Source: an uncultured Acidobacteriota bacterium | Lineage (GTDB): Bacteria > Acidobacteriota > Thermoanaerobaculia > Multivoradales > Multivoraceae | Length of the DNA stretch: 64,000 nucleotides | Direction: 5' to 3' | Assembly (NCBI GenBank): GCA_963851415.1 | Contig: CAWKPF010000002.1 | Coordinates: forward strand, 2,374,526 to 2,438,525 | In this document: one piece after another, positions 16,400 through 62,974 of the stretch | How positions within the stretch are numbered: position 1 is the stretch's first letter | Layout: the number at the start of each line of letters is the position of its first letter | Program-made: the position numbers and the translations under genes | The notes under the pieces: generated by a model | Told to the model about the DNA's origin: nothing | Seen by the model: the letters and a program-made list of their open reading frames with translations, nothing else | Database searches by the model: none

Positions 16400-16405
16400 A
16401 AAACG

Positions 16406-20831: not shown

Positions 20832-20857
20832 TGCCCCACGGTCCGCGATTCCGGTGG

Positions 20858-38230: not shown

Positions 38231-39484
38231 ATGTCAGAGCTCGCCATCGACCCGTCCTACCAGTACTTCGCCCTGGCCCTCGGCCTCGGACTGCTGGTCG
38301 GACTGCAGCGCGAGCGCAGGGGCTCGAGACTGGCCGGTGTGCGCACCTTTCCGCTGGTTACCATCCTCGGCACCCTCACCGGAACCCTGGCCGAGGCGCT
38401 GGGAAACGGCATGGTCTACTGGGCGCTGGGGTCGCTCGCGGTACTGATCGCCATCGCCGATGTCACCGACCTCCGGGTCCGTGGCAAAGAAGCCGACCCG
38501 GGGATGACGACCGAGGTGGCCCTCCTGGTGATGTTCGGGGTCGGGGTGCTGACCTCTCAGGGCTCGCTGGCGCTCGCCGCCGTGATCGGCGGCACGACGG
38601 CGGTGTTGCTCTACGTCAAGGACCAGCTGCATGGCTTCGCCGCTCGCCTCGGACCGCGCGACGCCCGTGCCATCATGCAGTTCGTCGTCGTGACGCTGGT
38701 CGTGCTCCCGATCCTTCCCAACCGGACCTTTGGCCCGTACGACGTGCTCAATCCGCGCCAGATCTGGTGGATGGTGGTGTTGATCGTCAGTCTCAGCCTG
38801 GCCGGCTACGTCGCCACACGGCTGTCCGGTGAGCGCACGGGAAGTCTGCTGGGCGGCGCACTGGGAGGACTCATCTCGAGCACGGCCACCACGGTCAGCT
38901 TCGCTCGGCGAAGCGCTGGCTCGAGCGCAGCCGTGCCCCTGGCAGCGATCGCCATCCTGATCGCGAGCGCCGTCATGATGCTCCGGGTGCTGATCGAAGT
39001 GGCCGTCGTCGCCCCGCAGCAATTCCTGGAGATGGCCTGGCCGATCGCGATCTCGGGAGGGGTTCTGGCGCTACTCGGCATGATCACCTGGCGGAGGACT
39101 CGAGACGAGGCCATCGAAGTCGCCGAGCCGCGCAACCCGGCCGAGCTCGGCTCGGCGCTCATCTTCGGCGGTCTCTACGCTCTCGTGATCTTCCTGATTG
39201 CCGCGATGCAGGACCGCTTCGGCTCCTCCGGTCTGTACGCCGTGGCCGCCTTTTCGGGACTGACCGACATGGACGCCATCACCCTCTCCTCCGCTCAGAT
39301 GGTGCGGGCGGACCGGCTCGATCCCTCGACCGCCTGGCGTCTGGTACTGGTGGCTGCCTCGGCCAACATGCTCTTCAAGGGAGCCATCGTGGCCTTGCTC
39401 GGCAGCAGACAGCTGACCGCGAGGATCGCGGGGCTCTTCACCGTGTTCGTGATCGGAAACGCCCTGCTGCTGTGGCTGTGGTGA
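38231..39484 (+). CDS. MgtC/SapB-family membrane protein with DUF4010-like C-terminal extension
   Basis: N-terminal MgtC-like TM region (…ALALGLGLLVGLQRERRG…GVRTFPLVTILG…) followed by further TM segments; 417 aa. Confidence 0.6.
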   Translation: MSELAIDPSYQYFALALGLGLLVGLQRERRGSRLAGVRTFPLVTILGTLTGTLAEALGNGMVYWALGSLAVLIAIADVTDLRVRGKEADPGMTTEVALLVMFGVGVLTSQGSLALAAVIGGTTAVLLYVKDQLHGFAARLGPRDARAIMQFVVVTLVVLPILPNRTFGPYDVLNPRQIWWMVVLIVSLSLAGYVATRLSGERTGSLLGGALGGLISSTATTVSFARRSAGSSAAVPLAAIAILIASAVMMLRVLIEVAVVAPQQFLEMAWPIAISGGVLALLGMITWRRTRDEAIEVAEPRNPAELGSALIFGGLYALVIFLIAAMQDRFGSSGLYAVAAFSGLTDMDAITLSSAQMVRADRLDPSTAWRLVLVAASANMLFKGAIVALLGSRQLTARIAGLFTVFVIGNALLLWLW

Positions 39485-47292: not shown

Positions 47293-47444
47293 GCGAGCGG
47301 CCCGTCGGGCGAGGGGTGCCGGCATCGGTTTCAGATCCGAGCCGTCGAGTCTGCAAACTCTTCAGGTGGCGCATCGCCCAAGCAGCTGTGTGGGCGGACG
47401 TGGTTATCGTCGGCATGTAGCCCACTCGTCGAGTGGGTGCTACC

Positions 47445-48179
47445 TCATGGCATCTGCCCGAGCAGGCCATCGACATCCTCTCTGATCGCCTCCGCCCACA
47501 GCTCGTAGCCGCGCTCGTTGAGGTGGAGGTAGTCGGGCATGAGGTCGGGGGAGGTGGTGCCGCCCTCGGTCAAGAAGACCTCACCGATGTCGAGGTAGTG
47601 AACCATCGATCCGTCTGCGAGCTCGACGAGCAATCGATTCGCGGCCTCGTTGTTGTGACGGAAGGGATCATCGCGCTCGCGGCCTCGCGGAAAGATGCCC
47701 AGAAGCAGGATCTTCGTTCCCGGGAGTCGCTCGCGCAGCTCACGCACGATCGCTTCGACCCCGTCCGCGATCTCCTGTGGTCCGTCCTTGCCGTGCTCGG
47801 AGTCGTTGGTGCCGATCAGCAGGACGATCAGCTTCGGCTCCAGACCGTCGAGGTGGCCCTGCTGGAGGCGCCACAGGACGTTCTCCGTCTGTTCCCAACC
47901 GACGCCGAGATTGAGCGCGCGGAGATGCCCGTAGTGCCGCTGCCACACCCGCTGACCGGCGGTTTCCCATTGGGCTGTGATCGAGTCGCCGAGAAACACG
48001 AGATCGGCCTCGGCCCCGCGAGCCCTCTCGACGAGCGCTTCGACTCGCTCCGGCTCGTGGCGGTTCGGCGCCGGCACTCCCGCACCGGGATCGGACGGGC
48101 GCTGACAGCCTCCGGCCATCAGGAGGATCGTCACGACCGTCGGCACCAGAGTGAGGCGACACGGCAAGAGCTTCTTCAC
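47445..48179 (-). CDS. SGNH/GDSL-family hydrolase lipoprotein
   Basis: Block I LVFLGDSIT, block III LLIGTNDS, block V DYLHLNERGY (DxxH). GTG start VKKLLPCRL with lipobox-like LMAGGC. Confidence 0.7.
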   Translation of the reverse strand: MKKLLPCRLTLVPTVVTILLMAGGCQRPSDPGAGVPAPNRHEPERVEALVERARGAEADLVFLGDSITAQWETAGQRVWQRHYGHLRALNLGVGWEQTENVLWRLQQGHLDGLEPKLIVLLIGTNDSEHGKDGPQEIADGVEAIVRELRERLPGTKILLLGIFPRGRERDDPFRHNNEAANRLLVELADGSMVHYLDIGEVFLTEGGTTSPDLMPDYLHLNERGYELWAEAIREDVDGLLGQMP

Positions 48180-48424
48180 TCTCGCGAGACTATGGCACCG
48201 GTCGCCGTCAGGGCAGCAAGGCGAACACGCCGGTGCACGGGAGTCTTCCGCCGGAACGCTGATTCTCTTCAACAATGCCATGCTCCACTTCGGTGGGAGA
48301 GTCGAGCCGGGAAGAGACCGACTGGTCGCGCGGGTCAGCTACCTCGAGTGACCTCGCTCACCTTTCTTTGGCCCCGCGAGGACGACGAGGCGAGCGCAGG
48401 GGCGGGCGGGCGGGCTCGCTCGCT

Positions 48425-48647
48425 CTCGAGCTCGTTGCCGAGATCCTCGGTGATGACGCGGCCATCGGTGAAAAGGCCGATGTCTCCGAGCATCGCCCTG
48501 CGGCGATCACCGAAGCCGGGAGCCGTGACCGCGACGACCTGCAGGATGCCACGCAGCCTGTTTGACCACGAGGGTGGCGAGAGCCTCGCCCTCAACGTCC
48601 TCGGCGAGGATCGCGACGGGACAACCCTGCTTGGCGACCTGCTCGCC
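48425..48647 (-). pseudogene. groEL: orphan internal fragment of a groEL (Hsp60) gene (apical-domain region, about 75 codons) with one frameshift
   Basis: Frame a: …[29 protein letters not shown]. Frame b: [43 protein letters not shown]. Compare E. coli GroEL …[69 protein letters not shown]. No N- or C-terminal GroEL sequence flanks it. Confidence 0.6.
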
Positions 48648-48896
48648 TGATGCGCAACGAGCCGTGGTACGCGCAGCGAGCGGGGCAAGATCCGGCCAGG
48701 AGATGGGTGAGTCTCCGCTCGAGAGGATCCGACGCACGGGTCCCGCTAAAAGGTATACGAATCCGGTGGTCTGAGCTCCAATCCATGGATTCTCGTCTGC
48801 GATCTCGGGCGCGCGGGATGAAGATGGCCTGCTTCCTCATCCAGACCGCCGAGATCCGAATCCGGCTCGGGGCTAGGCCCGTCCGACACTCTTTGT

Positions 48897-51461
48897 TTGG
48901 TGCCCATGTCACTCGATCAGACAGCCGCCGGCGCGAGCGGCCGCGAACCCGCTACGAAAACGAGCTTTCCCCGATACCTGGCGCTGGGCTTCCAGCTCGG
49001 GTTGTTTCTGATCCTGGTCTATCGATTCAACATCGACAGCCGGGCATTTCTGCATGTCGGGATCCTCGCCTTCTTCGGCTTCGCGGTTCACTACTTGCTT
49101 CCCTTCCGATTTCGGCTCCCGTTCTTCCTCTTTCTCTCGCTGATCTCGATCGAGCTGGTGCTGGGGTTTCAAGGGGAGAGATGGTCGCTCCCTGGGCTCG
49201 TGCAGGGGGCTTGGATCATCGGGATCGGTCTCGCTCTGATCGGTCTGGCTCACCTGCCGATCGCGTTCTCCATCCGAGTCGGATTGGTAGCGGCAGTGGC
49301 GGTCGTCCTCGCTTTTCTGCGCGCCAGCGACCTGGCCCTGCCATGGTCGACATCGATCTGGCCGATTCTGGCCTCGATGTTCATGTTCCGGCTGATCGTC
49401 TACATGTACGACCTCCGCCACGAGAAGTCGCCGGCGTCGTGGTCGACGCGCCTGTCGTACTTCTTCATGCTGCCCAACGTCTGCTTCCCGCTCTACCCGG
49501 TGGTCGACTATCAGGCATTTCGGCGCACCTACTACGACAAAGCGGACCGACACCAGATCTACCAGGTCGGAGTGAAGTGGATGGTGCGCGGAGTCGTGCA
49601 CCTGTTGCTCTATCGGCTGGTCTACCAGAATCTGGTCCTCGATGCCGACGACGTGAAAACCGCGGGAGATCTCCTGCAGTATCTGTTCTGGCCCTTCCTG
49701 CTGTACCTCCGGGTCTCGGGCTACTTCCACATCATTGTCGGGATGCTGCACCTGTTCGGCTTCAATCTGGCCGAGACCCACCATCTCTACTATCTGGCTT
49801 CGAGCTTCACCGACTTCTGGCGCCGCATCAACATTCCGTGGAAGGACTTCATGATGAAGATCTTCTACTACCCGGTGTACTTGAGGATCAAGAGTTGGGG
49901 AAGCACGACCGCCCTCGTGGTCACCACTCTGTTCGTCTTTCTGATGACGTGGATCCTCCATGCCTATCAGTGGTTCTGGATCCGCGGCACGTTCCTGCTC
50001 ACCTGGAACGATGGGCTGTTCTGGGCTGCTCTGGGACTGTTGGTCGTAGGGGCATCTCTGTACGAGGTGAAGTACGGTCGCAAACGCCGACTCGCGGGAA
50101 GCTCGATGTCGTGGCGTGAGGCGATGCCGATCGCACTGGGCGCGATCGTGGTGTATTGCACCATCTCCTTGCTGTGGTCCTTCTGGAGCGCTCACTCGGT
50201 CGGAGAGTGGTTGTCGGCATGGCGAGCTCTAGGGCATTGGGAGCTGTCCGATCTTCCGGCCGTCGTCATCGGTCTGGCCGTTCTCACGGCGATCGGAGTC
50301 GGCTCCGCGATGGATGCGCGGGGGGTCATCGAGCGCCCTTTCAGCTTTTCGAGGTCCTTCGCCGGAGTGGTCGCGGGGGCCGCGATCCTGCTCGGGATGA
50401 CGCTGCCCGTGGTGACGGAGGGACTGTCTCCCCGCGGCCGAGAGATCGTTACCGATCTCAGGGCCTCAGAGCTCAACTCGCGAGATTTCGAGAAGCTCGA
50501 GCGCGGCTACTACGAGAACCTGATCGATGTCGGGAGCTTCAATCCGGAGCTCTGGGAGGTGTATCGGACGCGGCCCGCTGATTGGCGCAATCTCCGCGAC
50601 ACGGACGCCGTGTTCTACACGGACGGATTTCCGTGGTACGAACTGCGGCCCGATAGCGAGACCCGCCACAACGGCGCCCTGGTGCGGACCAATCGGTGGG
50701 GGATGCGCGATCGCGACTACGAGAAGGTGCCCGCGGAAGGGGTCACGCGAATCGCTATCGTCGGAAGCTCGTTCGTGTTCGGCTCGGGGGTCGAGAACGA
50801 AGAGATCTTCGAGAGTCTGCTCGAGACGCGTCTGAACTCCTCCCGCAGCTCGAGTGAGGTTGCCTACGAAGTGCTCAACTTCGGTGTTGCCGGCTACGCT
50901 CCCCTCGAGCATCTGGAGGTGATCAAGGAGCGAGCCCTCGAGTTCGAGCCGGAGGTCCTCCTGTACGTGGAGCATGCCGATAGCGGGAACAACGTCGTGA
51001 TCCAACTGGTCGCGACGATGCAACGGGGGATCCGGCCCGCCTACGACTATCTCGACGACATCATTGCCCGGGCCGGGATCGACGAAACGACGATCGATCA
51101 ATCGAGCGATCCGAACGTTCTCAAGGCGAAGTTGGGCCCCTACCAGGAGGAGTTGCTTGCCGGGCTCTATCAGCGGATGGTCGAGGCCTGTCGCGAAGAC
51201 GGTGTCACCCCCGTGTGGGTCTACCTCCCTCGACCGGAAGAGACCGAGCGGGGCGGACCGCCCGAGCCCGAGACGCGGCTCGCTCGCGAGGCTGGATTCG
51301 AGTTGCTCGACCTGACGGGTGTCTACGGGGAGGGAGATCTCGGGGAGCTCTGGATCGCCCGCTGGGATCACCATCCGAATGCCGAGGGTCACCGGCGGAT
51401 CGCCGAGGGTCTCTACCGAATGCTCGAGGAGAGGGAGCTGCTCGATTCGGTCGAGCAGTGA
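48897..51461 (+). CDS. MBOAT-family membrane O-acyltransferase (DltB/AlgI-like) fused to a C-terminal periplasmic SGNH-like (DltD/AlgJ/AlgX-like) domain
   Basis: About 11 TM helices. FTDFWRRINIPWKDFMMKIFYYPVYL aligns with the AlgI/DltB FWRRWHISLSxWxRDYxY motif (His not obviously conserved at that position). C-terminal 380 aa are soluble with IAIVGSSFVFGSGVENEE… (SGNH block-I-like) and …WDHHPNAEGHRRIAEGLY (DxxH-like). Confidence 0.7.
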   Translation: MVPMSLDQTAAGASGREPATKTSFPRYLALGFQLGLFLILVYRFNIDSRAFLHVGILAFFGFAVHYLLPFRFRLPFFLFLSLISIELVLGFQGERWSLPGLVQGAWIIGIGLALIGLAHLPIAFSIRVGLVAAVAVVLAFLRASDLALPWSTSIWPILASMFMFRLIVYMYDLRHEKSPASWSTRLSYFFMLPNVCFPLYPVVDYQAFRRTYYDKADRHQIYQVGVKWMVRGVVHLLLYRLVYQNLVLDADDVKTAGDLLQYLFWPFLLYLRVSGYFHIIVGMLHLFGFNLAETHHLYYLASSFTDFWRRINIPWKDFMMKIFYYPVYLRIKSWGSTTALVVTTLFVFLMTWILHAYQWFWIRGTFLLTWNDGLFWAALGLLVVGASLYEVKYGRKRRLAGSSMSWREAMPIALGAIVVYCTISLLWSFWSAHSVGEWLSAWRALGHWELSDLPAVVIGLAVLTAIGVGSAMDARGVIERPFSFSRSFAGVVAGAAILLGMTLPVVTEGLSPRGREIVTDLRASELNSRDFEKLERGYYENLIDVGSFNPELWEVYRTRPADWRNLRDTDAVFYTDGFPWYELRPDSETRHNGALVRTNRWGMRDRDYEKVPAEGVTRIAIVGSSFVFGSGVENEEIFESLLETRLNSSRSSSEVAYEVLNFGVAGYAPLEHLEVIKERALEFEPEVLLYVEHADSGNNVVIQLVATMQRGIRPAYDYLDDIIARAGIDETTIDQSSDPNVLKAKLGPYQEELLAGLYQRMVEACREDGVTPVWVYLPRPEETERGGPPEPETRLAREAGFELLDLTGVYGEGDLGELWIARWDHHPNAEGHRRIAEGLYRMLEERELLDSVEQ

Positions 51462-51524
51462 GGACTTGGTTCGTACCTGAGCGAAGCAGAACGTTCGAAT
51501 TCAAAACGCAGCGAAGGAGTCAGA

Positions 51525-51794
51525 ATGTCAAATGCGCAGACGACCGTTCACCAGAAGGTGAAAGACTTCATCCTCAAGGAGTTCCTCCCCGGTGAGAGCC
51601 CCGAGAACCTGACCGACGATACTCCGCTGGTTACCGGGGGGATTCTCGATTCTCTCGCGACCCTCAAACTGGTCGCGTTTCTCGAGGAGACCCAGGGGAT
51701 CAAGGTCGAAGCTCACGAGATGGGCGCCGACAACTTCGATTCCGTGAACACGATCGCCGCGTACGTGGGCTCCAAGTCCGAGGCCGCTGGGTAA
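51525..51794 (+). CDS. D-alanyl-carrier-protein (DltC)-like small carrier protein
   Basis: 89 aa; GGILDSLATLKLVAFLEE matches the DltC phosphopantetheine-attachment motif GLLDSFGTVELL. Confidence 0.75.
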   Translation: MSNAQTTVHQKVKDFILKEFLPGESPENLTDDTPLVTGGILDSLATLKLVAFLEETQGIKVEAHEMGADNFDSVNTIAAYVGSKSEAAG

Positions 51795-51803
51795 ACCTCC
51801 ATC

Positions 51804-53366
51804 GTGCCGAAGAACGGACTTCATCGCCCGCTTTCGCTGTCTGCGCAGCGTGTTCCCGACCGGCTGGCTGTCTCGGATCCGAGTCGGGGCCGGACGATCA
51901 GCTACAAGGAGTTGGACTCTCTCTCCGATCGTCTGCGCGACCGGCTGCGGGCGATCGGCGTCGTGCCTGGGGACCGGGTCGGAATCTGCCTGGGCAAATC
52001 GATCAGCAGCGTCGCCTCGGTGTTCGGAATCCTCAAGGCCGGCGGCGGCTATGTGCCGGTCGACTCCACGGCTCCGCCAGAGCGCAACGCGTTCGTCTTC
52101 AGCAACTGCGAGGTCGCGGCGGTGCTCGTGGAGGAGCGTTTCGAGGAGGCACTACGGCAGGAGCTTTCGACAGCGGGGAGCACGCCTCCGTTGTTGGTGC
52201 TTCAGACCGAGACGGAAGAGGACCCCCTGCGGGCAGCTCTCGACCGGGCGGACCAGGAGAGTGCGGCCGAGCCCGTGCCTACGTTCGAGGCCGAGCCCGG
52301 CGACCTGGCCTACATCCTCTATACCTCGGGTTCGACGGGAAAGCCGAAGGGCGTGACTCTGTCGCATGAGAACGCGACCTCTTTCGTCGAATGGTGCTCA
52401 GAGGTCTTCTCGCCTCGTGAAGACGATCGGTTTTCCTCGCATGCGCCTTTTCACTTCGACCTCTCGATCCTCGATCTCTACCTTCCGATTCGACACGGCG
52501 CCTCCATCCACCTGATCGGCGAGCAGCTCGGAAAGAACCCGGCGGGCATGGTGCAGCTCCTGTCAGAGGCCGACCTGACGGTCTGGTACTCGACCCCTTC
52601 CGTGCTCAGATTGATGCTCGAGCATGGAGGTCTGGCGGATCTCGAGAGCCACTCTCTTCGCTACGTGCTCTACGCTGGCGAGGTCTTTCCGGTCAAGCAC
52701 CTCAGAGAGCTGGCGAGAGTCGTCACGGGGCCTCGCTATTTCAACCTCTACGGCCCGACGGAGACCAACGTCTGTACCTATCACGAGACACCTGCGATCG
52801 TGCCTGATGAGCGTTCGAAGCCCTATCCGATCGGCAGGGTTTGCTCCCACCTGCGGGCGCGAGTGGCCGACGAGGACGGGAAGCCCGTTGCCGTTGGCGA
52901 AGAGGGAGAGCTCCAGATCTCGGGCCCAGCGGTCTTGCAGGGGTACTGGAACCAGCCGGAACGGACCGCCGCCGCTTTCATCGAGGACGACACGGGAAGG
53001 TGGTACCGGACGGGTGACCTCGTCATCGAAGACGAAGAGCGGGTCTACACCTTCGTGGGGCGACGGGATCGTATGGTGAAGCGGCGCGGGTACCGCATCG
53101 AATTGGGCGAGATCGAGGCCGCCTTCTACCGGCATCCCGAGATCTCCGAGGCCGCAGCGGTGGCGGTGTCGGATCAAGAGGGGGTCACCATCAAGACCTT
53201 CTACTCGACCCGCGAGGGCACACCGCTCTCGATGATCGAGCTCAAGCGTTTCTGCGCGGCGCGTCTGCCGATGTACATGATCCCGGACCGGTTTACGCAC
53301 CTGGAGGTTCTCCCAAAGACCTCGACCGACAAGATCGACTATCAGCTTTTGAAAGAGGTCGAATAA
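51804..53366 (+). CDS. DltA-like adenylation enzyme (AMP-dependent synthetase/ligase, carrier-protein ligase)
   Basis: AMP-binding motif LAYILYTSGSTGKPKGV; YRTGDLV…; 520 aa, same length class as DltA or stand-alone NRPS A-domains. Start is 10 nt after the carrier gene. Confidence 0.8.
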   Translation: MPKNGLHRPLSLSAQRVPDRLAVSDPSRGRTISYKELDSLSDRLRDRLRAIGVVPGDRVGICLGKSISSVASVFGILKAGGGYVPVDSTAPPERNAFVFSNCEVAAVLVEERFEEALRQELSTAGSTPPLLVLQTETEEDPLRAALDRADQESAAEPVPTFEAEPGDLAYILYTSGSTGKPKGVTLSHENATSFVEWCSEVFSPREDDRFSSHAPFHFDLSILDLYLPIRHGASIHLIGEQLGKNPAGMVQLLSEADLTVWYSTPSVLRLMLEHGGLADLESHSLRYVLYAGEVFPVKHLRELARVVTGPRYFNLYGPTETNVCTYHETPAIVPDERSKPYPIGRVCSHLRARVADEDGKPVAVGEEGELQISGPAVLQGYWNQPERTAAAFIEDDTGRWYRTGDLVIEDEERVYTFVGRRDRMVKRRGYRIELGEIEAAFYRHPEISEAAAVAVSDQEGVTIKTFYSTREGTPLSMIELKRFCAARLPMYMIPDRFTHLEVLPKTSTDKIDYQLLKEVE

Positions 53367-54515
53367 ATGAACCTGGACTTGACCAAAGAACAAGTCGCCC
53401 TTGCGGGCGAGATTCGTCGTTTTGCTCGCGAAAGGCTCAATGAGGGTGTCCTCGAGCGCGATCGAGAGCAGACTTTCTCCCGAGAGCTCTGGAAGGAGTG
53501 CGGTGAGATGGGTTTGACCGGCCTTCCCGTTCCGATCGAGTACGGGGGGACCGGGTTGGATCCGCTGTCGACTGCCGTTGCGCTGGAGGCCTTGGGTCAC
53601 GGTTGCGAGGACTCCGGACTGGTCTTCTCCATCTGCGCCCATTTGCTCGCCTGCGCGGTGCCAATCTGGAAGTACGGGACCGACGAGCAGAAGGGCAGAT
53701 ACCTTCCGGGGCTTTGCGACGGAACCCTCATCGCGGCCAACGCGATGACCGAGCCCGACTCGGGCTCCGACGCCTTTGCACTCCGAACTCGTGCCGAGCG
53801 AGACGGCGACGGCTACCGGCTCAACGGCACCAAGATCTTCGTGACCAATGGCCCGGTGGCCGATCTGGCTCTGGTGTTCGCGGTGACGGACCCCGAGAAG
53901 GGTTATCACGGAGGCATCACTGCCTTCGTGGTGGATGCCGACACCGAGGGTTATCGCAAGGGCCAGCAGTTCGAGAAGCTCGGTCTGCGAACTTCTCCCA
54001 ACGGAGAGCTGTTCTTCGAAGACATGTATCTTCCCCCGACGGCGGTGCTCGGTGGCGAGGGAGGAGGATCCCAGGTCTTCGTCAGCGCGATGGAGTGGGA
54101 GCGAGGTTGCCTGTTCGCCAGCCACGTGGGCACCATGGAGCGGCTGCTCGAGAAGGCCATCGAGTATGCACGCACTCGGAAGCAGCAGGGCCAGACCATC
54201 TCGAAGTTCCAGGCCGTCTCCCACAAGATCTCGGACATGAAGATCCAACTCGAAGCGGCGCGACTGCTCACCTACAAGTCCGCATGGAACCTCGAGCGGT
54301 CGAGGAGGGTGTCTTTGGACGCTGCCATCTCGAAGACCTTCGTCAGCGAATCGTTGGTACGGAGCGCGCTCGACACCATTCAAGTGTTCGGGGGCTACGG
54401 GTTTCTCGCCGAATACGAGATCGAGCGCACCCTGCGCGACTCGGTGGGAAGCACGCTGTACTCGGGCACTTCGGAGATCCAACGCAACATCATTGCCGGC
54501 TGGCTCGGGCTGTAG
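53367..54515 (+). CDS. acyl-CoA dehydrogenase family flavoenzyme
   Basis: 382 aa with ACAD N/M/C domains (…GLTGLPVPIEYGGTGLD…, …AANAMTEPDSGSDAFALRT…, …QVFGGYGFLAEYEIERTLRDS…). Start ATG directly abuts the ligase stop (TAAATG). Confidence 0.85.
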   Translation: MNLDLTKEQVALAGEIRRFARERLNEGVLERDREQTFSRELWKECGEMGLTGLPVPIEYGGTGLDPLSTAVALEALGHGCEDSGLVFSICAHLLACAVPIWKYGTDEQKGRYLPGLCDGTLIAANAMTEPDSGSDAFALRTRAERDGDGYRLNGTKIFVTNGPVADLALVFAVTDPEKGYHGGITAFVVDADTEGYRKGQQFEKLGLRTSPNGELFFEDMYLPPTAVLGGEGGGSQVFVSAMEWERGCLFASHVGTMERLLEKAIEYARTRKQQGQTISKFQAVSHKISDMKIQLEAARLLTYKSAWNLERSRRVSLDAAISKTFVSESLVRSALDTIQVFGGYGFLAEYEIERTLRDSVGSTLYSGTSEIQRNIIAGWLGL

Positions 54516-54708: not shown

Positions 54709-55728
54709 TCACCTCGGCGCGCCCGAGGTCACCTGCCACTGGTTGAGTCTTCCGGACTCGAAGTTGTCGCCGAACACGGTCGCCCTCGATCTGAACCAGT
54801 CCCGTGACGTGGCGTCTGTCTTCAGGAAGTCCATCAACATTCCCGCGACCTTCGCTCGCCCGATCATCGACGGGTGCGTGCCATCGGCTCCGAGATCGCT
54901 GCAGGCGTACTCCAGGCCGTCCGAACGACCCGGTTGACCGCCCGGCTGTCCGTCCGGGCCGAGACCGTCCGCCCAGAGATACGGGCCCCACGCCAGCCAG
55001 GGAGCTCGAACCGTTCCGGCGGCGGGATTGAAGTTCAGACCCGGGTCGCCGGCCAGTTGATCCTCGATCAGCCACTTCACCGCGAACCCACCCTGATAGG
55101 CAAACGGTTCGGGGTTGAGCGGCAGATTGGCATAGCCGGCGTAGATGCGGCTGCTCAAGTAGGCGATCTCGAGGTTCGGAAAGCGCTCCTTGAGGGTCTG
55201 AACGGTGGTGCGCAGGAGGTCGCGCAGCCAGAGGCTCCGTTCCGGAAACGTCTGCGGTGAAAAGGGGCCGGCGGAGGCGGCGAGCTTGATCCAGGCGACC
55301 TGGACCTGCATCGGCGTGAGGCCGGCCGCGCTCAGCTTCGAATCGAGAAGGCTCCAGGCCAGACTCCCCGGGTCGGCCCACGAGACGGCGTCCATGCTTC
55401 CCTCCGCCCCGTTGACGGGAACGATGTGCGGCTTGATATCCGGGTCGTCGCTGGCCATCGAGATGAAGGTGTCGAACTCACCCTCTGTGTTCGACATCCC
55501 AACGGACAGCAGTCCGATCTTCCCCGAGGTGGGGGCCGCCTGTCCTTGCGGATCCAAGGGTCTGAGCGAGCGAGCGAAATACAGGCCGGCCGACTCGTGC
55601 GCTCCCGGCCGCGTGTTGGACCCGCCCGGATAGAGTCCGCCCTCTTCTCCCTGGTAGGTACCCCTGCCCAGGTCGGTGAGGGGGACCAGTCCAACGGAGG
55701 TGTTGCTGCACGCTCCCCCGGCTCCTCC
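54709..55728 (-). CDS. secreted SGNH hydrolase, copy B (N-terminally truncated, in-frame continuation of copy A)
   Basis: Block I IGLLSVGMSNT, block V DGTHPSMIGRAKVAG (DxxH). 95-100% identical at nucleotide level to 55729-56785 and 63168-64000. Confidence 0.6.
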   Translation of the reverse strand, partial: GGAGGACSNTSVGLVPLTDLGRGTYQGEEGGLYPGGSNTRPGAHESAGLYFARSLRPLDPQGQAAPTSGKIGLLSVGMSNTEGEFDTFISMASDDPDIKPHIVPVNGAEGSMDAVSWADPGSLAWSLLDSKLSAAGLTPMQVQVAWIKLAASAGPFSPQTFPERSLWLRDLLRTTVQTLKERFPNLEIAYLSSRIYAGYANLPLNPEPFAYQGGFAVKWLIEDQLAGDPGLNFNPAAGTVRAPWLAWGPYLWADGLGPDGQPGGQPGRSDGLEYACSDLGADGTHPSMIGRAKVAGMLMDFLKTDATSRDWFRSRATVFGDNFESGRLNQWQVTSGAPR

Positions 55729-56785
55729 GGTCGAGCTCGATCCGAACCAGTCCCGTGACGTGGTGTCCGTCTTCAGGAAGTCCATCAACATTCCCGCGAC
55801 CTTCGCTCGCCCGATCATCGACGGGTGCGTGCCATCGGCTCCGAGATCGCTGCAGGCGTACTCCAGGCCGTCCGAGCGGCCCGGTTGACCGCCCGGCTGT
55901 CCGTCCGGGCCGAGACCGTCCGCCCAGAGATACGGGCCCCACGCCAGCCAGGGAGCTCGAACCGTTCCGGCGGCGGGATTGAAGTTCAGACCCGGGTCGC
56001 CGGCCAGTTGATCCTCGATCAGCCACTTCACCGCGAACCCACCCTGATAGGCAAACGGTTCGGGGTTGAGCGGCAGATTGGCATAGCCGGCGTAGATGCG
56101 GCTGCTCAAGTAGGCGATCTCGAGGTTCGGAAAGCGCTCCTTGAGGGTCTGAACGGTGGTGCGCAGGAGGTCGCGCAGCCAGAGGCTCCGTTCTGGAAAC
56201 GTCTGGGGGGGAAGACGGGCCGCCCGAGGCGGCGAGCTTGATCCAGGCGACCTGGACCTGCATCGGCGTGAGGCCGGCCGCGCTCAGCTTCGAATCGAGA
56301 AGTCTCCAGGCCCGACTCCCCGGGTCGGCCCACGAAACGGCGTCCATGCTTCCCTCCGCACCGTTGACGGGAACGATGTGCGGCCCGATATCCGGGTCGT
56401 CGCTGGCCATCGAGATGAAGGTGTCGAACTCACCCTTCGTGTTCGACATCCCGACCGACAGCAGTCCGATCTTCCCCGAGGTGGGGGCCGCCTGTCCCTG
56501 CGGATCCAAGGGTCTGAGCGAGCGAGCGAGATCGAGGCCGGCCGACTCGTGCGCTCCCGGCCGGGTGTTGGACCCGCCCGGGTAGAGTCCGCCCTCCTCT
56601 CCCTGGTAGCTACCGCTGCCCAGGTCGGTGAGCGGGATCAATCCAACGGAGGTGCTGCTGCACACTCCCCCCCGGTGCACGAGGTGGGACTCGGCGCCCG
56701 CAGGGCCGGCGAGCACCATGAGTGCAACGAGGACCGTGGGCGCCAGCCCGAGCCCGAGCCTCTCCGGGCGTACTCTGAATCTCAT
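55729..56785 (-). pseudogene. secreted SGNH hydrolase, copy A (signal peptide intact; +1 frameshift in G7 tract 56205-56211; C-terminal 20 aa replaced by fusion to copy B)
   Basis: MRFRVRPERLGLGLAPTVLVALMVLAGPAGA signal with GGAGAG RBS. Copy C and copy B read …KLAAS(G/A)GP(S/F)SPQTFPERS… across cttcccccc (G6/none), whereas copy A has cttccccccc (G7), shifting the frame. Confidence 0.6.
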
Positions 56786-57022
56786 TATAGGACTCTCCAA
56801 AAATCGACAAATGCAAGATAGATCACAACCAGATCTCCCATTGTTGCCGATCTGGCGGCCCGATAGCCAGCCCCGGGGAGGGAGACCGCCGGGGGACCAC
56901 TGCGGGAACGGCCCGGTTCTCGAGGGCGTCGCGCTACGGAAGCGGCTCGTATGCAGGTACCTTCGAGGCTCGCGCCGAAGTGGATTCCGATCGATTCTGT
57001 CGGAGTTCTAGGAGCACAGTGC

Positions 57023-57526: not shown

Positions 57527-58978
57527 TCAGGGCAGGGTGTAGGTCACCACCAGCTCGGGATAGTTCGCCGAACTGGGAGTCTCTCCGGAGTAGTAACCGA
57601 ACGCGTCGTTGGCTTCGTCGTCGTCGTCGTCGAGCTCGAAGTACACCCGCATCTGGGTGATGCCGGTGGGGTCGATGGCCGCCAGGCCAGCGCTGTCGAG
57701 CGTGCCTTCGGACCAGTCGCGAATGTTCGGGGCCCCTGACAGGGTCGCCGACTGCGTCACCGTCGCCGGGCTCTCGAAGTCGCTCGGCTGCAAGGCCGGA
57801 TTGCCGCTGAAGCCACCGGTCTGCACGTCGACGTGACAGGCTCCGAGTGCCAAGAACGGATTTCCCCCGAATTGAGGACCGCGCCGAATCCTGAGGGTCG
57901 CCATCTCGATCACCGCGCCCTCGGGTAGCAGCGACGTGTCGAAAGAGAAGATCGCCTTGATCTGCTTGTCCAACCCGTCGTCGCCGATCCGCACGGCCGG
58001 CCCCTGACTGATGACACCACCGACGTTGCTGTCCTCGCTCGACTCGAACACGGTACCGTCGTCGGCGCCGATGGAATAGAGGATCATCTCCTGCACTCCG
58101 CCAGCGGGACCGACGACCAGCGAGATCGAGTCGACGTTGACGTTGCCGTCGGCATCGGTCGCGGTAGCCGTGATCAGGTGCGAGCCCTCCGAAAGAGCGG
58201 CGGAGAACGAGCCTCCGGTGCCGATGGCGCCGTCGAGGCTCGACTCCCAGGCCAGACTTGCCGTGACGTCACCGTCCTTCGCGTCGTTCGCCGACCCGAG
58301 GAAGGCGATGAGCTCGCCCGCATCGAAGGGCTCGCCGTCCGTCGGTGCGCCGATGGTCACCACCGGTGCCGCCGTGCCCTCGAAATAGCTCAGCGCGTGA
58401 TCGAACGCTTCCGGACCGATGGCGTAGCCCATGAGGCGCCCGGGAATGTCGTCCGCCGGCGGATGGATGCCGCCCCAGATGCGCGAGAGGCTCGTCTGGT
58501 CCGACGCGTCGTGGTAGGTCGCCCACTGCAGCGTCGATCGTCCACGCTCGGGCCGTCCTCGAACACGAGGAACTCGTTCTGCGGCGCCGGGAACTCGCCG
58601 AGCCCGCCCGGGAAGTACGTCGAGCCCGTGAGCAGCGTCATGCACCTCGGCGGCCGCGCGGCTGTAGGTGCTGTGCCCGGAGACGTAGCCGGCGAAGGGC
58701 GGCGTCACGAAGGTCGGCCGCTGATAGGGCCACCAGTCCTCGGCGAGGATCCAGCCGACGCCGGCGACGTCGGTCGTCCGGGTCTGCGATGAAGTCGGGG
58801 CCGCGCCAGGCGCGGATCGCGATCTTGCCGACGTCGCGCGGCGAGGTGCTCGTGGCGCTCGCCCGGCGCGCTGCTCGTCGGCCGTGACGACCTCGATCGA
58901 AGCCCGGACGCAGCGCGATGCCGTCCGGGTCGTAGCGACGGGACCTGGCGGATCGGAGCACTGGCCGCGCTCGGCCAT
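57527..58978 (-). CDS. intact C-terminal portion of a secreted PAP2/vanadium-haloperoxidase-like protein (PAP2 motifs, Ig-like domain, conserved ~170-aa beta-sandwich domain)
   Basis: PAP2 signature pieces …YQRPTF…VSGHST…SRIWGGIHPPADD (KxxxxxxRP…PSGH…SRxxxxxHxxxD). Ig-like segment …AWESSLDGAIGTGGSFSAALSEGSHLITATATDADGNV…. Ends …MRVYFELDDDDDEANDAFGYYSGETPSSANYPELVVTYTLP. Confidence 0.55.
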   Translation of the reverse strand: MAERGQCSDPPGPVATTRTASRCVRASIEVVTADEQRAGRAPRAPRRATSARSRSAPGAAPTSSQTRTTDVAGVGWILAEDWWPYQRPTFVTPPFAGYVSGHSTYSRAAAEVHDAAHGLDVLPGRARRVPGAAERVPRVRGRPERGRSTLQWATYHDASDQTSLSRIWGGIHPPADDIPGRLMGYAIGPEAFDHALSYFEGTAAPVVTIGAPTDGEPFDAGELIAFLGSANDAKDGDVTASLAWESSLDGAIGTGGSFSAALSEGSHLITATATDADGNVNVDSISLVVGPAGGVQEMILYSIGADDGTVFESSEDSNVGGVISQGPAVRIGDDGLDKQIKAIFSFDTSLLPEGAVIEMATLRIRRGPQFGGNPFLALGACHVDVQTGGFSGNPALQPSDFESPATVTQSATLSGAPNIRDWSEGTLDSAGLAAIDPTGITQMRVYFELDDDDDEANDAFGYYSGETPSSANYPELVVTYTLP

Positions 58979-60190
58979 GGTAGCGGATCGCGGAGATCGG
59001 ACGGATGTAGTCGTACCAGCCCTTGATGCCCCAGGCGGCGATCGCCACGTCGTGCATCGCGCCGCCGAGCATGAGGTAGACCTTCACGTCCCACTCGAGG
59101 TCGTCGAGCGATCGGCCCCGTCCCGCCGATGCGCTTCTCGACGAGCGGATGATCGGTGACGTAGTTGGCGATCGTGAACCAGTGCCCGGGCGGCGTCTCG
59201 GAGTCCGGGCCGTCGGCCCAGAACTCGGCGAGCACGCGCGCGTAGTCGCCGCGCGGGCACGATCTGCGGCGTGTAGGGCTGGCCGGTCACCGGGTTCACG
59301 GGTAGCCCGTGCCCCAGTCGCCGCCGTCCTCGAAGTCGTAGTAGGCCGCCAGTCGCCCGGATCCGGCAGCGGGCGTTGCCGATCGAGGCGGGCGAGATGT
59401 CGATCATCACGCCGTCGGTCGGGTCGAGGTGGCCGACTCCAGACGACGCCGACCATGCTCGAAGCCGTCCAGGTAGTCGTCGCCGTCGGCGGCCGAGCAG
59501 CGGCGGCGGCCCCGGATCGTGGTAGACCCAGTAGTCGAAGCCGTCGCGCGTGGTAGATCGTCAGGTCGTCGGGCGTCGAGCGCGAACGGCGTCGACCTGG
59601 CCCCACTCCGGGACTCAGGAATGGCGGGAAGCCGCCGGGGATCGGGTTGCCGCACTGGTCGATGAAGAAGTCGAGCGCGAGCGGCTGCCAGCGGTTCGGA
59701 TCGACCAGGTCCGGGTTGCCGGGCAGCGCCGGCGAGCAGCGGCGGGTTGACCGGCTCGTAGTACAGGTTCGCGTAGCCGTTCGGCCTCGTTCGAGCCGTC
59801 GGCGAGGCCGAACGCGATGCACGGCCGCGGCGATGCGGTTGCCGAGCGCCGCGGGCGGTCGCGTCGCCCGCGGTCGTCGTGAATCGCGTGTCGTAGCCGA
59901 GCTCGGCCATCCGATCGTCGCACGAGACGGCAGTGATACGCGCGCCCGGCGAGCTCGCGAAGCGGCAGCTCAGGATGCGGTAGGCCGCGTAGCTGATCGC
60001 CTCTTCGCGGGCCGCCGGCACGTCCGCCGCCGTGGCGCTCTCGTCGTGGAGGATCGTGGTCGGCCGTGCCGTCGTAGGCCGCCCAGGCGTCCCACATCGC
60101 CACCGAGACGTGGAAGAGGTTGCGCGCGTGCACCGTCGGCCGCGCGAAGTCGCGGCGGATCGCCGTCGAGCAGCTCCTCGTTCCACTGCC
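57527..60190 (-). pseudogene. PAP2/vanadium-haloperoxidase-like gene whose 5' two-thirds (58500-60200) is scattered over at least 4 reading frames
   Basis: Real-looking haloperoxidase pieces in different frames: ARNLFHVSVAMWDAWAAYDG (59615-60445 frame), YANLYYEPVNPPL (59407-60186 frame), LDDLEWDVKVYLMLGGAMHDVAIAAWGIKGWYDYIRPISAIRYHG (58638-59822 frame), LAEFWADGPDSETPPGHWFTIANYVTDHPLVEKR (58705-59235 frame). Confidence 0.45.
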
Positions 60191-62974
60191 GGGCGACGGA
60201 ACCCTCGGTCTCGACGGCGAAGTACGACACGACCAGCTGAGGTCGGGACGCGGAATCGGCGGCCTCGCCAGGATAGTAGCTGACGAAGTCGGTGAGGTTG
60301 TCGTCATCGTCATCGATCTCGAAGTAGACCCGCATCTGGGTCGTGCCGGTGCGACTGATGGCGGACAGACCGAGAAGATCGAGCGTGGCTTCGGACCAAT
60401 CACCGTTGGCCGAGGCCGAGGAGAGAACCGCCGCTCGCGGCGCATCCGCAGCAGCCTGGAAGTCGGAGGCCTGAAGGGCCGGATTCCCGCTGAAGCCGCC
60501 CGTCTTCACGTCGACATAGGCAGTGCCATGCGTAGTGAACGGATCGGACCCCCCGGATCCGCCGCGCTGGATTCGCAGGACCGCAGACTCGATCACCGCT
60601 CCTGCGGGTAGCACGGACGTGTCGAACGAGAACACGGCGACGGTCTGACGGTCCTCGTTGTCGTCGCCGATCCGAATCGCGCCACCGCCCGACAGGCTCT
60701 GGTTGAAGACCCCTCCGACGCCGCTGTCCTCGCTCGACTCGAAGACCCTTCCGTCCTCGGTACCGATCGACAGCAACGTCTTCTCGATCGTCTCACCCGT
60801 CGGAACGGTCACGTCGATGATCACGGAGTCCTCGGCCAGATTGCCGTCGCCATCGACCACCGATGCGGTGATCTCGTGCGTGCCTTCGGTCAGCGACACG
60901 GAGAGGTTGCCCCCGATGCCGAGATCGCCGTCGCGATCGGAGGTCCAAAGAATGCTCCCCGCCAGATTACCGTCCTCTGTATCGCTGGCAGTGCCGGCGA
61001 AGTCGATGAGCGTGCCGGTCGTGGAGGTCGAACCATCCGCAGGGGAGGTGATCGTCACCGTGGGAGGAAAGCCCCCCGCCGGAGTGACCACGAGATTGAC
61101 CGCGGCCTGCCCGACATTGCCGTCGATGTCGGTGACGGAGGCGAGGATCACATGCGCGCCCTCCGACAGCACCGCCGAAAAGCTGCCTCCCGAACCGATG
61201 GCTCCGTCGAGGCTCGACGTCCACGTGAGATCGCTCGAAAGATCGCCCTCGTCGGGGTCGTCGGCACTGCCCTCGAAGTCGATCAGATCGCCCGCCATGA
61301 ACAGCGCACCCTGGCTCGGCTGGACGATGGTGACCACCGGCAGCTCGGCAACCTCCTGCACCGTGTAGACCTGGTTCACTGCGACGCCGACCAGCGAGGT
61401 GTCCACCAATCCGCTCGGCCAGAAGACCTCGACCAGATCGACCACTGCCGCATCGCCGAGGCCGAACGACAGCCGCAGGCTGTCCTGGGAGTGCGCGCTG
61501 CTGCCACCCAGCACCTGCCGCACGTATTGATTGCCACCGGCAGTGACGCGGACCAGAGCGCCAATGGCGCTCCTGTTCGAAGCGCCCGGAGTCCCAGCGC
61601 CCTGGAGATCGAACTGCACCCAGTTGTTGGTCGGCGCGGTGTCGTTGCGCAGAAGCTGAACCGTTCTTCCATGTTGCACGACGATGATGTCGACATCTCC
61701 GTCCCGGTCGTAGTCGGCAATCGCGCTTCCTCGACCCTGGCTCCCGCTTCGACTGGGAATCCCGACCTTGGTGAACGTACCGTCACCATTGTTCCGGAAC
61801 AGGTCGTTGGACCCTGAAGCGATCCGCGACACGAAGAGGTCCTCGTACCCGTCGCTGTCCACATCCACGAAGTTCGCCCCCCACGACTTGGCGGACGCGA
61901 TCCCACGATCACAGGCCGAGTCGTCCGCGAAAAGGATGCTGGCGCCACCGAGATTCTCGTACAAGGCGTTCGTGCCGCCGCAGGAGTTCAGCGGCTCCCA
62001 ATCCGTGACGTAGACATCGAAGTCGCCGTCGAGGTCGATGTCCCCGATGGTGAGCCCCATCGCGAAGCGGGAGTCGTTACCGACGCCTAGCGAGTCGCCG
62101 GCCACGTCCAGGAATCCTGTTCCGTTCTGGTTCTCGAAGATCTGGTCCTGATCCTGGGGCGTGATGTTGCCCACGTAGACATCGGGCCAAAGGTCGGAGT
62201 TCAGGTGGCCCGCGATCGTCACCAGAGCATCCCGGATGATCAAATCGAGACCGACCTGCGTCGAGACATCCTCGAACTGGCCGTTGCCGAGATTGCGAAA
62301 GAGTCGGTCCTGCACCCAGGGACTGTTGTTGCCCTCATTCCAGTGCCCGACGTAAAGGTCGACGTAGCCGTCGCGATCGTAGTCGAGCCAGTTGGCGCTG
62401 ACCGAGACGTACGACGGGCCATCCGGCAACGGGGACGGCAACAGATCATCGACCCCGGCCGCCGCGGCGACCTCCTCGAACAGGGGCTCCCCCGGGATCA
62501 CCTGATGTCCGTTTTCCACCCAGAGGTTGCGCAGCAGCTGATTCGGAGGCGAGCCGTTGCCCTTTTTGGTCCCTTGGACGGGCACCGCAACGTAGATGTA
62601 GATGTCCTGATCACCGTCGTTGTCGTAGTCGGCAAAGACAGAGCCCATCATCTCGATCGCGGGGTCCAGCGGCAGCAGCTCGTCCACATTGGTGAAGGTG
62701 CCGCCGTCGTTGCGGAACAGGTGATACGGCATATTCGTGGTGCGTCCATGCCGTTGACCGCGAACAGGTCGTCCCAGCCGTCGTTGTTGAAGTCGATCCA
62801 GTTCAATCCGAGGCCGTGGAAGGACTCGGCGACGAACACGTATCCATTCAGACCCTGTGCGGCGGTCTGATCCGTCAGGACGATCGCGGGGCTTTGCGCC
62901 GCGAGCGGGGCCACGAGCCCGACGGTAAGGATCAGAATCAGCAACGGCTCGATCATCTCTCTCTGCGATCTCAT
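60190..62974 (-). CDS. very large secreted CRTAC1-like multidomain protein (FG-GAP/VCBS propeller, ASPIC/UnbV, three Ig-like domains, ~170-aa beta-sandwich domain); frameshift near 62735; possibly continuous with the haloperoxidase-like gene downstream
   Basis: Signal MRSQREMIEPLLILILTVGLVAPLAAQS (ORF 62648-63133) ending …NNDGWDDLFAVNGMDAP, then frame switch to MPYHLFRNDGGTFTNV… (ORF 59970-62732). Repeated D(Y/F)DxDGxxD motifs; ASPIC/UnbV block …SNRSAIGALVRVTAGGNQYVRQVLGGSSAHSQDSLRLSFGLG…; Ig-like repeats …SSLDGAIGSGGSFSAVLSEGAHVILASVTDIDGNV…. The domain …LLSIGTEDGRVFESSEDSGVGGV…MRVYFEIDDDDDNLTDFVSYYPGE…PQLVVSY also occurs in 57527-58978. Confidence 0.55.

Follow-up and report, generated by a model that had tools for sequence, protein, structure and literature searches.

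A 64,000-nucleotide stretch of contig CAWKPF010000002.1 from an uncultured Acidobacteriota bacterium (the window) contains four adjacent genes, designated g1 to g4, which probably constitute a module for relaying a proline-derived, pyrrole-type acyl group across the inner membrane to an extracytoplasmic acceptor (estimated probability, roughly 0.6). The trio g2-g3-g4 is a cassette of the PltF/PltL/PltE type and not a DltA/DltC pair joined by a stray dehydrogenase, and the arrangement of all four genes far exceeds what chance would produce, as it recurs in 37 of the 43 loci, drawn from many phyla, that had sufficient flanking sequence. The four genes, with their positions in the window, are as follows.

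48906 to 51461, forward strand: g1, a fused membrane acyltransferase of 851 amino acids from the ATG at 48906 (alternative TTG start at 48897), taken from the open reading frame (ORF) and its translation.
51525 to 51794, forward strand: g2, a type II carrier protein of 89 amino acids.
51804 to 53366, forward strand: g3, a stand-alone adenylating enzyme of 520 amino acids with a GTG start.
53367 to 54515, forward strand: g4, an acyl-CoA dehydrogenase (ACAD)-family flavoenzyme of 382 amino acids.

The initial annotation had described four codirectional, tightly spaced genes with the start of the ACAD gene abutting the ligase stop, and this layout was confirmed over positions 48906 to 54515: consecutive genes are separated by 63, 9, and 0 bp, with the g3 TAA running straight into the ATG of g4. 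The gene calls of the source genome, on a contig of 4.74 Mb, gave identical boundaries for all four proteins, the database protein corresponding to g1 (P0001; 851 amino acids) likewise starts at 48906, and the G+C content at third codon positions in the four frames was 0.73 to 0.80, which supports g1 to g4 as real genes. The downstream neighbor (54709 to 56109) lies on the reverse strand, convergent with g4, an orientation that, as the initial annotation had noted, makes a longer fatty acid operon around the ACAD gene unlikely. The quoted motifs were also found, namely, FWRRIN (with Asn309) and ETHH (residues 290 to 293) in g1, GGILDSLATL (with Ser43) in g2, and YTSGSTGKPKGV.

The g1 family is large, with more than 3300 matches at an E value of ≤1e-5 among 8000 candidates scored, and 999 representatives at 50% identity (E ≤ 1e-30); in species-representative genomes, at least 584 loci were confirmed. 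Its hosts include Alpha-, Beta-, and Gammaproteobacteria, Acidobacteriota, Chloroflexota, Gemmatimonadota, Planctomycetota, Verrucomicrobiota, Binatia, and Eisenbacteria. Relatives of g1 are listed in databases as “hypothetical,” as “SGNH/GDSL hydrolase family protein,” or, by COG, as “DltB” (JGI). Co-occurrence was assessed in those retrieved loci, 43 in number, in which 6 kb or more of sequence flanked g1 on both sides, which provided the gene neighborhood survey that had been suggested for the order acyltransferase, carrier, ligase, ACAD. All four genes were present in 37 of these loci, and the one-strand order g1-g2-g3-g4 was kept in 28; when seven redundant Mesorhizobium loci were left out, the corresponding counts were 31 and 22 of 37. 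On a Microvirga megaplasmid (PLSDB), g2-g3-g4 are divergent from g1. Clustering of all ORFs across the retrieved loci revealed no fifth universal gene, and neither polyketide synthase (PKS) nor nonribosomal peptide synthetase genes were part of the conserved core in this clustering.

The g3 protein has the Pfam domains AMP-binding (289 bits) and AMP-binding_C and scored above the cutoff of the NCBIfam amino acid adenylation domain model (371 bits). Its scores against the NCBIfam DltA models were 283 and 271 bits, short of the cutoffs of 476 and 560. The top single-domain match in PDB was PltF (6o6e; 350 bits), the L-proline--[L-prolyl-carrier-protein] ligase of pyoluteorin biosynthesis, and DltA structures scored about 190 to 213 bits. 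The specificity residues, read from an alignment of the A4-A5 region with the tenth residue, Lys, lying beyond the aligned fragment, were D219, L220, L223, Y262, L289, A291, L315, V323, C324, and K510, giving the code DLLYLALVCK. The nine aligned pocket positions compare as follows.

g3: D L L Y L A L V C
PltF (6o6e): D L L Y L A L V C
Second prolyl ligase (7thn): D L F Y I A W V C
Bacillus subtilis DltA: D L M T F G T V A

The g3 pocket equals that of PltF at nine of nine aligned positions and differs from that of B. subtilis DltA at six of nine. Among 54 proteins of the g3 cluster in related loci, 43 had exactly DLLYLALVCK, 8 had DLFYLALVCK or DLLY[H/N]ALVCK, and the remaining 3 were unrelated AMP-ligase paralogues. 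The specificity code, which had been proposed as a check, thus strongly supports the prediction that g3, as a stand-alone adenylating enzyme with an L-proline code like those of PltF/PltL/PltE-type systems, activates L-proline and loads it onto g2. The earlier description of this enzyme as DltA-like holds at the superfamily level but not in specificity, in which g3 is nearer to PltF and lacks the DltA pocket residues.

The g2 protein matched Pfam PP-binding at the gathering score, and its predicted phosphopantetheine attachment site is Ser43 in GGILDSLATL (positions 51651 to 51653, forward strand). In PDB, the best matches were a type II peptidyl carrier protein (2my5; E = 2e-11), the acyl carrier protein domain of Bmp1 (6cxt_A; 2e-10), and PltL (5e-7), with weaker matches to PigG (1e-4) and DltC (1.3e-4); the NCBIfam DltC models gave 31.8 and 20 bits, below their cutoffs of 68 and 52. 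By sequence, g2 is a type II carrier protein nearer to Bmp1 and PltL than to DltC, and the label “DltC-like” applies to it only at the superfamily level. The top NCBIfam model was ACP_for_OlsHI (114.9 bits; cutoff, 130), which is named after the ornithine lipid locus of planctomycetes (OlsH/OlsI). No GH3-like OlsH gene or OlsI gene was present among the genes at the locus, and this lead was dropped, as the OlsH/OlsI paper involves neither a g2-type carrier nor any GH3 enzyme here.

These results bear on whether the module carries out a true Dlt-type D-alanylation, or attaches some other simple aminoacyl group to a Gram-negative envelope, the ACAD gene being an unrelated neighbor. The types of component do agree (adenylating enzyme, small carrier, MBOAT, and SGNH), and JGI labels relatives of g1 DltB. 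D-Alanylation of the DltA type was nevertheless rejected on the basis of the g3 pocket, and the whole proposal is highly improbable, given that the DltA and DltC models were far below their cutoffs, that g4 abuts g3 with a gap of 0 bp, and that g4 co-occurs with the other genes across the surveyed loci.

The g4 protein contains the N-terminal, middle, and C-terminal ACAD domains of Pfam (107, 88, and 140 bits). Its top NCBIfam models were PigA (460 bits; cutoff, 500) and the L-prolyl-carrier-protein dehydrogenase RedW (428 bits; cutoff, 650), with acyl-CoA dehydrogenases proper at ≤304 bits, and its PDB matches were AnaB (4irn; 381 bits), Bmp3 (6cxt_B; 330 bits), and PigA (5zw0; 325 bits), with ordinary ACADs at ≤276 bits. 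AnaB and g4 are 46% identical and share the arrangement of YSGT and a Glu residue: Glu214 of g4 (NGELFF; positions 54006 to 54008) aligns with the catalytic Glu of AnaB, and Ser366 (YSGTS) stands where medium-chain acyl-CoA dehydrogenase has its catalytic Glu (YEGT). In AnaB and Bmp3, dehydrogenation of the pyrrolidine ring depends on this Glu as the base, and RedW, PltE, and Bmp3 perform a four-electron oxidation (PMC10849742). The GE[LI] and YSGTS motifs are kept in all 33 g4 orthologues and in AnaB. The evidence supports g4 as a relative of the ACAD-family prolyl-carrier-protein dehydrogenases, with the catalytic Glu relocated as in that clade, and g4 is predicted to oxidize prolyl-S-g2; the suggestion in the initial annotation of an ACAD that desaturates aminoacyl- or acyl-S-carrier proteins is supported by its sequence kinship to AnaB, Bmp3, and PigA.

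Flavin-dependent halogenases like PltA, Mpy16, and ChlB4 occur in or beside the module at four related loci (L025, L063, L057, and L031); the halogenase of L025 (7953 to 9293) scored 412 to 416 bits against the PltA, Mpy16, and ChlB4 structures. Weaker halogenase-like genes were found at L017, L021, L033, L043, L049, and L056. PltA and Mpy16 halogenate pyrrolyl-S-carrier proteins, and such enzymes are therefore a separate line of evidence that favors an aromatic pyrrolyl intermediate, in those lineages at least, and they suggest that halogenated pyrrolyl groups are formed there. The loci with extra genes belong mainly to Chloroflexota, together with Pirellulales (Planctomycetota), Binatia, and an unclassified bacterial metagenome-assembled genome (MAG). 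Also added in a subset of loci were another GDSL protein, stand-alone and about 375 amino acids long, a PMT_2 glycosyltransferase, extra AMP-ligases, and an O-methyltransferase. The following, at loci of the Chloroflexota type, lie directly after g1 or inside the module.

L017, 13790 to 14914: stand-alone GDSL gene, right after g1.
L025, 6806 to 7930: stand-alone GDSL gene, right after g1.
L043, 12610 to 13749: stand-alone GDSL gene, right after g1.
L049, 4129 to 5217: stand-alone GDSL gene, right after g1.
L017, 12516 to 13772: PMT_2 gene, inside the module.

AnaB stops after a two-electron oxidation and feeds a PKS. If g4 likewise stopped at two electrons, g1 would transfer a pyrroline-carboxyl (dehydroprolyl) group, or even unoxidized proline, in the manner of D-alanyl esters. 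The rank of AnaB among the solved matches of g4 (381 bits, compared with 325 to 330 bits for Bmp3 and PigA), the lack of a halogenase in the window locus and in most proteobacterial loci, and the overall layout, which parallels Dlt aminoacylation, speak for such a product. It is nevertheless improbable, since PigA and RedW, both four-electron enzymes, are the top family matches of g4, halogenases of the pyrrolyl-S-carrier-protein type are present in about 10 loci, and the identity between g4 and AnaB is only 46%. The near-universal retention of g4 also argues that oxidation is needed, and a cyclic imine ester would be chemically labile.

The largest protein, g1, combines the following features.

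48963 to 50105, forward strand: MBOAT-fold domain, residues ~20 to 400.
49830 to 49832, forward strand: Asn309, invariant.
49959 to 49961, forward strand: His352, invariant, the predicted catalytic His in TWILHAYQW.
50112 to 50399, forward strand: three additional transmembrane (TM) helices in the AlphaFold2 model (403 to 428, 447 to 471, and 481 to 498; residues 403 to 498 overall).
50505 to 50522, forward strand: G-Y-Y-E-N-L, residues 534 to 539, a flexible linker with the candidate acyl-shuttle residues Tyr535/Tyr536.
50583 to 51440, forward strand: SGNH/GDSL domain, residues ~560 to 845.
50769 to 50771, forward strand: Ser622 of the SGNH domain.
50877 to 50879, forward strand: Asn658 of the SGNH domain.
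51366 to 51368, forward strand: Asp821 of the SGNH domain.
51372 to 51374, forward strand: His823 of the SGNH domain.

An AlphaFold2 model of g1 built on 25 relatives had a pLDDT of 82.9 and a pTM of 0.77 and was weak only at residues 1 to 17, at residues 528 to 550, and in the last four residues. In a Foldseek search of PDB, DltB was the first match (E = 1.7e-7; TM score on the target, 0.65), followed by PORCN, HHAT, and DGAT1, and the N-terminal domain is thus predicted by the model to adopt the MBOAT membrane fold. NCBIfam gave no MBOAT match for g1. The sequence link to MBOATs was made by hhalign of the g1 family profile against canonical MBOATs from two betaproteobacterial MAGs, in which canonical AlgI/PatA-type MBOAT genes lie 5 to 10 kb from the module (L012, 3860 to 5350, PF03062, 119 bits; L052, ~20522 to 21736). 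The alignment had an E value of 8.9e-5 over 177 columns; with the 119-sequence g1 profile and a lowered -mact, the E value was 1.2e-5, with a probability of 81% over 318 columns. It paired LYLRVSGYFH...FTDFWRRIN of g1 with canonical LYFDFSGYSD...ISEFWRRWH, and TWILHAYQW with GGLWHGANW. His352 falls on the WHG His and therefore corresponds to the catalytic His universal among MBOATs, and Asn309 takes the position of the RRWH His; both residues were conserved in 100% of 119 g1 relatives. In eukaryotic MBOATs, the upstream position corresponding to the RRWH His is occupied by Asn or Asp, and g1 accordingly has the MBOAT pattern of an invariant His in a TM helix with an Asn, Asp, or His about 40 residues upstream.

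The fusion of an MBOAT to a C-terminal SGNH domain, as read in the initial annotation, is thus borne out by the predicted fold and the residue alignment, although Pfam is silent on the MBOAT part. The multiple alignment proposed for locating the catalytic His placed it at His352. The reported replacement of the MBOAT His in FWRRIN is correct insofar as Asn309 stands there, but the missing His is not the universal catalytic one, and ETHH, offered as a substitute His pair, aligns with nonconserved positions of canonical MBOATs.

Between the two domains lies a segment that the earlier account of the fusion had omitted. Over 119 relatives, the mean number of Lys plus Arg residues was 3.8 in loop 391 to 402, 3.2 in loop 472 to 480, and 0.8 in loop 429 to 446; by the positive-inside rule, the chain would exit to the outside after residue 498, and the three extra helices would carry g1 from the cytoplasmic loop 391 to 402 to the extracytoplasmic side. 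In the linker that follows, Tyr535, Tyr536, Glu537, and Leu539 were 100% conserved and Gly534 was 99% conserved in these relatives, and segment 528 to 550 had a pLDDT of <50. In DltB/DltX/DltD and PatA/PatB, the MBOAT acylates the invariant Tyr of an FxYxxF “acyl shuttle,” which is located on DltX in Dlt and elsewhere at the MBOAT C terminus after two extra TM helices; the SGNH partner receives the acyl group on Ser and passes it to the polymer (PMC12148441). The canonical MBOATs of L012 and L052 end in FIYFNF and FLYYQF. By analogy, the Tyr-Tyr linker of g1 probably replaces DltX or the C-terminal FxYxxF shuttle, and g1 looks like a canonical MBOAT whose shuttle segment, GYYENL, runs on into an SGNH domain. 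In the systems covered by PMC12148441, MBOAT and SGNH are separate proteins, and fusions are described only for AT3-SGNH enzymes.

The C-terminal part of g1 matched SGNH esterases in Foldseek and had only a weak GDSL match in Pfam (residues 619 to 831; 22 bits). Ser622, Asn658, Asp821, and His823 are invariant in g1 relatives, so that the block I Ser, the block III Asn, the block V Asp/His, and the SGNH fold are all represented.

The genomic surroundings offer hints to the acceptor. The Mesorhizobium module is embedded in a polysaccharide cluster that also encodes a Wzx-type flippase, three GT4 glycosyltransferases, a pyruvyl transferase, a methyltransferase, and sulfotransferases, and in a Burkholderiales MAG the module lies among housekeeping genes. 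The largest counts in a survey of flanking genes were for halogenases (5), AMP-binding proteins (4), GT1/GT4 glycosyltransferases (4), carbamoyltransferases (3), and polysaccharide deacetylases (3). Among loci with g1 alone, L024 has a GT2 glycosyltransferase, a sulfotransferase, and an epimerase nearby, and L072 has a membrane sulfatase/LtaS-like protein. The Mesorhizobium cluster and the occasional glycosyltransferase, carbamoyltransferase, and deacetylase neighbors thus hint at what is acylated. The module stands alone in most genomes, and the target may therefore be a common envelope component; as a portable unit, the cassette has either such a target or a product that is released.

Release would mean that the SGNH domain hydrolyzes the acyl-Tyr or acyl-enzyme, or uses a small alcohol, so that a free (halo)pyrrole carboxylate or a simple ester is secreted into the periplasm or medium, where it would serve as a signal or antibiotic. 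Off-loading agrees with the self-contained nature of the cassette, which mostly lacks adjoining polysaccharide genes, and with the nearest structures to its SGNH domain being esterases. Halogenated pyrroles are typically bioactive small molecules, and halogenases, as well as an O-methyltransferase, occur in some loci. Pyrrole-2-carboxylic acid is, moreover, a known secreted bacterial metabolite (PMC12194822). Such export is nonetheless unlikely: a soluble thioesterase with a transporter would do the same job more simply, the characterized bacterial MBOAT-SGNH pairs are all transferases acting on polymers (PMC12148441), and the Mesorhizobium and L024 settings are polysaccharide clusters.

For transfer of a pyrrole-type group to an extracytoplasmic acceptor, the following sequence of reactions is proposed. 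As strongly supported by sequence, g3 would adenylate L-proline and load the phosphopantetheine arm of g2 at Ser43. The flavoenzyme g4 would then oxidize prolyl-S-g2, a step that its sequence supports, most likely to pyrrole-2-carboxyl-S-g2 in a four-electron reaction, as with PltE, RedW, and Bmp3, and less likely to a pyrroline-carboxyl thioester in a two-electron reaction, as with AnaB. Before the acyl group is transferred, the pyrrolyl-S-carrier protein is probably halogenated by PltA/Mpy16-like enzymes in a subset of lineages. From the analogy with DltB and DltC, acyl-S-g2 would be expected to dock on the g1 MBOAT domain from the cytoplasmic side, where His352, with Asn309, may move the acyl group through the membrane onto Tyr535/Tyr536 of G-Y-Y-E in the extracytoplasmic linker. 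The SGNH domain (Ser622/Asp821/His823) would finally form an acyl-serine and esterify a hydroxyl of the extracytoplasmic acceptor. The domain identities, the catalytic residues, the proline code, the clade of the dehydrogenase, and the four-gene linkage are supported by sequence and structure prediction. It is by analogy that g2 is proposed to dock on g1, a Tyr to carry the acyl group in transit, the SGNH domain to act as a transferase, and oxidation in this clade to take four electrons, and the kind of acceptor is likewise proposed by analogy. In outline, the idea of carrier-dependent MBOAT-SGNH transacylation with an ACAD oxidizing an aminoacyl-S-carrier, already put forward in the initial annotation, agrees with the PltF code, the dehydrogenase kinship, the halogenase loci, and the co-occurrence of the genes.

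Several points weigh against this scheme, every step of which derives from homology and gene context. The Pfam MBOAT families (PF03062 and PF13813) gave no match in g1 or 25 relatives at E ≤ 1, and a PDB sequence search with the g1 family profile or a motif fragment returned no MBOAT. The likeness of GYYE[ND]L to FxYxxF is loose and partial, and the SGNH domain could be a hydrolase and not a transferase. Both g2 and g4 fall short of the NCBIfam equivalog cutoffs (ACP_for_OlsHI for g2; PigA and RedW for g4), and the top solved relative of g4, AnaB, is a two-electron enzyme. No halogenase is present in the window, and the g4 proteins of halogenase-linked loci form a separate subclade, 50 to 54% identical to the window g4, so that pyrrole formation in the clade of the window is an extrapolation. 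A few genomes (L059 and L072) have g1 without nearby g2-g4, and the 148 flanking ORFs surveyed from 54 loci matched 142 different Pfam families, none of them dominant.

The module resembles known systems in part. Its proposed logic is that of Dlt (DltA-DltC-DltB-DltX-DltD, acting on Firmicute teichoic acids), in which a small carrier protein is charged by an adenylating enzyme at the expense of ATP, the acyl group passes from the phosphopantetheine thioester through an MBOAT to the other side of the membrane, and an extracytoplasmic SGNH protein finishes the transfer via acyl-Tyr and acyl-Ser (PMC12148441). Unlike Dlt, the module has a code for L-proline in place of D-alanine and an added oxidizing flavoenzyme, and its MBOAT and SGNH parts form one chain with three extra TM helices. 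It lacks DltX, the 63-bp and 9-bp gaps being too short for a microprotein gene, and has the internal GYYE instead; its proteins do not reach the Pfam MBOAT or the DltA/DltC equivalog models, and its hosts are Proteobacteria, Acidobacteriota, Chloroflexota, Planctomycetota, and others. With the pyrrolyl cassettes PltF/PltL/PltE (plus PltA), PigI/PigG/PigA, RedM/RedO/RedW, and Bmp1/Bmp3 (plus Bmp2), the module shares a proline-specific adenylating enzyme, a type II carrier, and an ACAD dehydrogenase, including the PltF-identical code, the position of the catalytic Glu, and, in some loci, PltA/Mpy16-like halogenases. Those cassettes hand the pyrrolyl group to a PKS/ketosynthase or a soluble acyltransferase for a diffusible metabolite, whereas the partner here is an MBOAT-SGNH fusion. 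The AnaC/AnaD/AnaB system, which makes the anatoxin-a starter unit, includes the closest solved relative of g4, but it has no MBOAT, and the two-electron product of AnaB goes to a PKS.

PatA/PatB, AlgI/AlgJ/AlgX, and WssH/WssI have an MBOAT with extra C-terminal TM helices and a Tyr shuttle and a periplasmic SGNH transferase acting on a polymer (PMC12148441), features that g1 probably shares. They differ from it in using acetyl-CoA as the donor, without a carrier protein, in consisting of two separate proteins, and in having the shuttle at the extreme C terminus; in g1, the Tyr pair lies within the chain, which runs on to form the SGNH domain. The AT3-SGNH fusions OatA, OafA, and OafB are unlike g1 in their membrane fold, which is AT3 and not MBOAT, and in their donor, which is acetyl-CoA and not an acyl carrier protein.

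In the window, the module is flanked by a divergent, stand-alone GDSL lipase, a tetratricopeptide repeat protein, and proteins without a family match. The lipase gene (47445 to 48281, reverse strand) encodes 278 amino acids (GDSL/SGNH; Pfam, 111 bits) and lies ~620 bp upstream of g1; it is not conserved beside the module elsewhere, and the stand-alone GDSL gene of the Chloroflexota-type loci is a different one. An ORF at 47433 to 48650 on the forward strand was considered as a fifth gene and rejected, as it is probably a shadow of this reverse-strand gene and has no relative in any locus. About 7 to 12 kb upstream, all on the forward strand, lie a PMT_2 (GT-C, ArnT-like) glycosyltransferase gene (36614 to 38125), an MgtC/DUF4010 membrane protein gene (38231 to 39484), and a gamma-glutamyltranspeptidase gene (40065 to 41882). 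Large FG-GAP/ASPIC (UnbV) repeat proteins, one with bacterial Ig domains, are encoded at 30971 to 33835 (forward strand) and 59970 to 62732 (reverse strand). Between the module and the second of these, the reverse-strand ORFs at 54709 to 56109, 55478 to 56800, and 57527 to 58978 had no Pfam match, and the first and third had no NCBIfam match either. Further upstream, positions 15290 to 20831 (forward strand) encode a type IV pilus PilT ATPase and PilC, for which the top model was the Myxococcus-type PilC, below its cutoff; next come genes for a sensor kinase and a sigma-54-dependent response regulator, and an AcrB-type resistance-nodulation-division (RND) pump is encoded at 26568 to 29678 (reverse strand). 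The type IV pilus genes and the RND pump suggest a diderm host.

Pyrrolyl-S-carrier-protein cassettes and MBOAT/SGNH relays that depend on a carrier protein, the two halves of the proposed pathway, are each known already. The joining of the two, the architecture of MBOAT, shuttle, and SGNH in one chain, and the implied acyl group appear to be undescribed: in the literature searched, neither the module nor a pyrrole-type modification of the cell envelope was described, and the earlier view that the four-gene arrangement is uncharacterized agrees with the lack of a publication on it there. It is tentatively proposed that this widespread system (about 1000 families at 50% identity, in at least eight phyla) might decorate an envelope component (polysaccharide, peptidoglycan, lipopolysaccharide, or lipid) with pyrrole-2-carboxylate esters, halogenated in some loci of Chloroflexota, Planctomycetota, and an unclassified MAG, and might thus represent a new class of surface modification and the first natural-product pyrrole cassette that feeds a Dlt-like relay.

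If this is true, a proline-derived, sometimes halogenated pyrrole would join the known envelope substituents (acetyl, D-alanyl, succinyl, and glycyl), and carrier-protein-dependent MBOAT relays would extend beyond Firmicute teichoic acids. A natural single-chain MBOAT-shuttle-SGNH protein would also lend itself to studies of the acyl-Tyr relay that has recently been proposed for DltBXD and PatAB. Secondary-metabolite chemistry would be tied to cell surface biology in Mesorhizobium, Accumulibacter, Acidobacteriota, and Anaerolineae, and recognition by phages or predators, symbiosis, and biofilm properties could all be affected if a surface polymer bore such an ester, which would be hydrophobic, stable, and UV absorbing.

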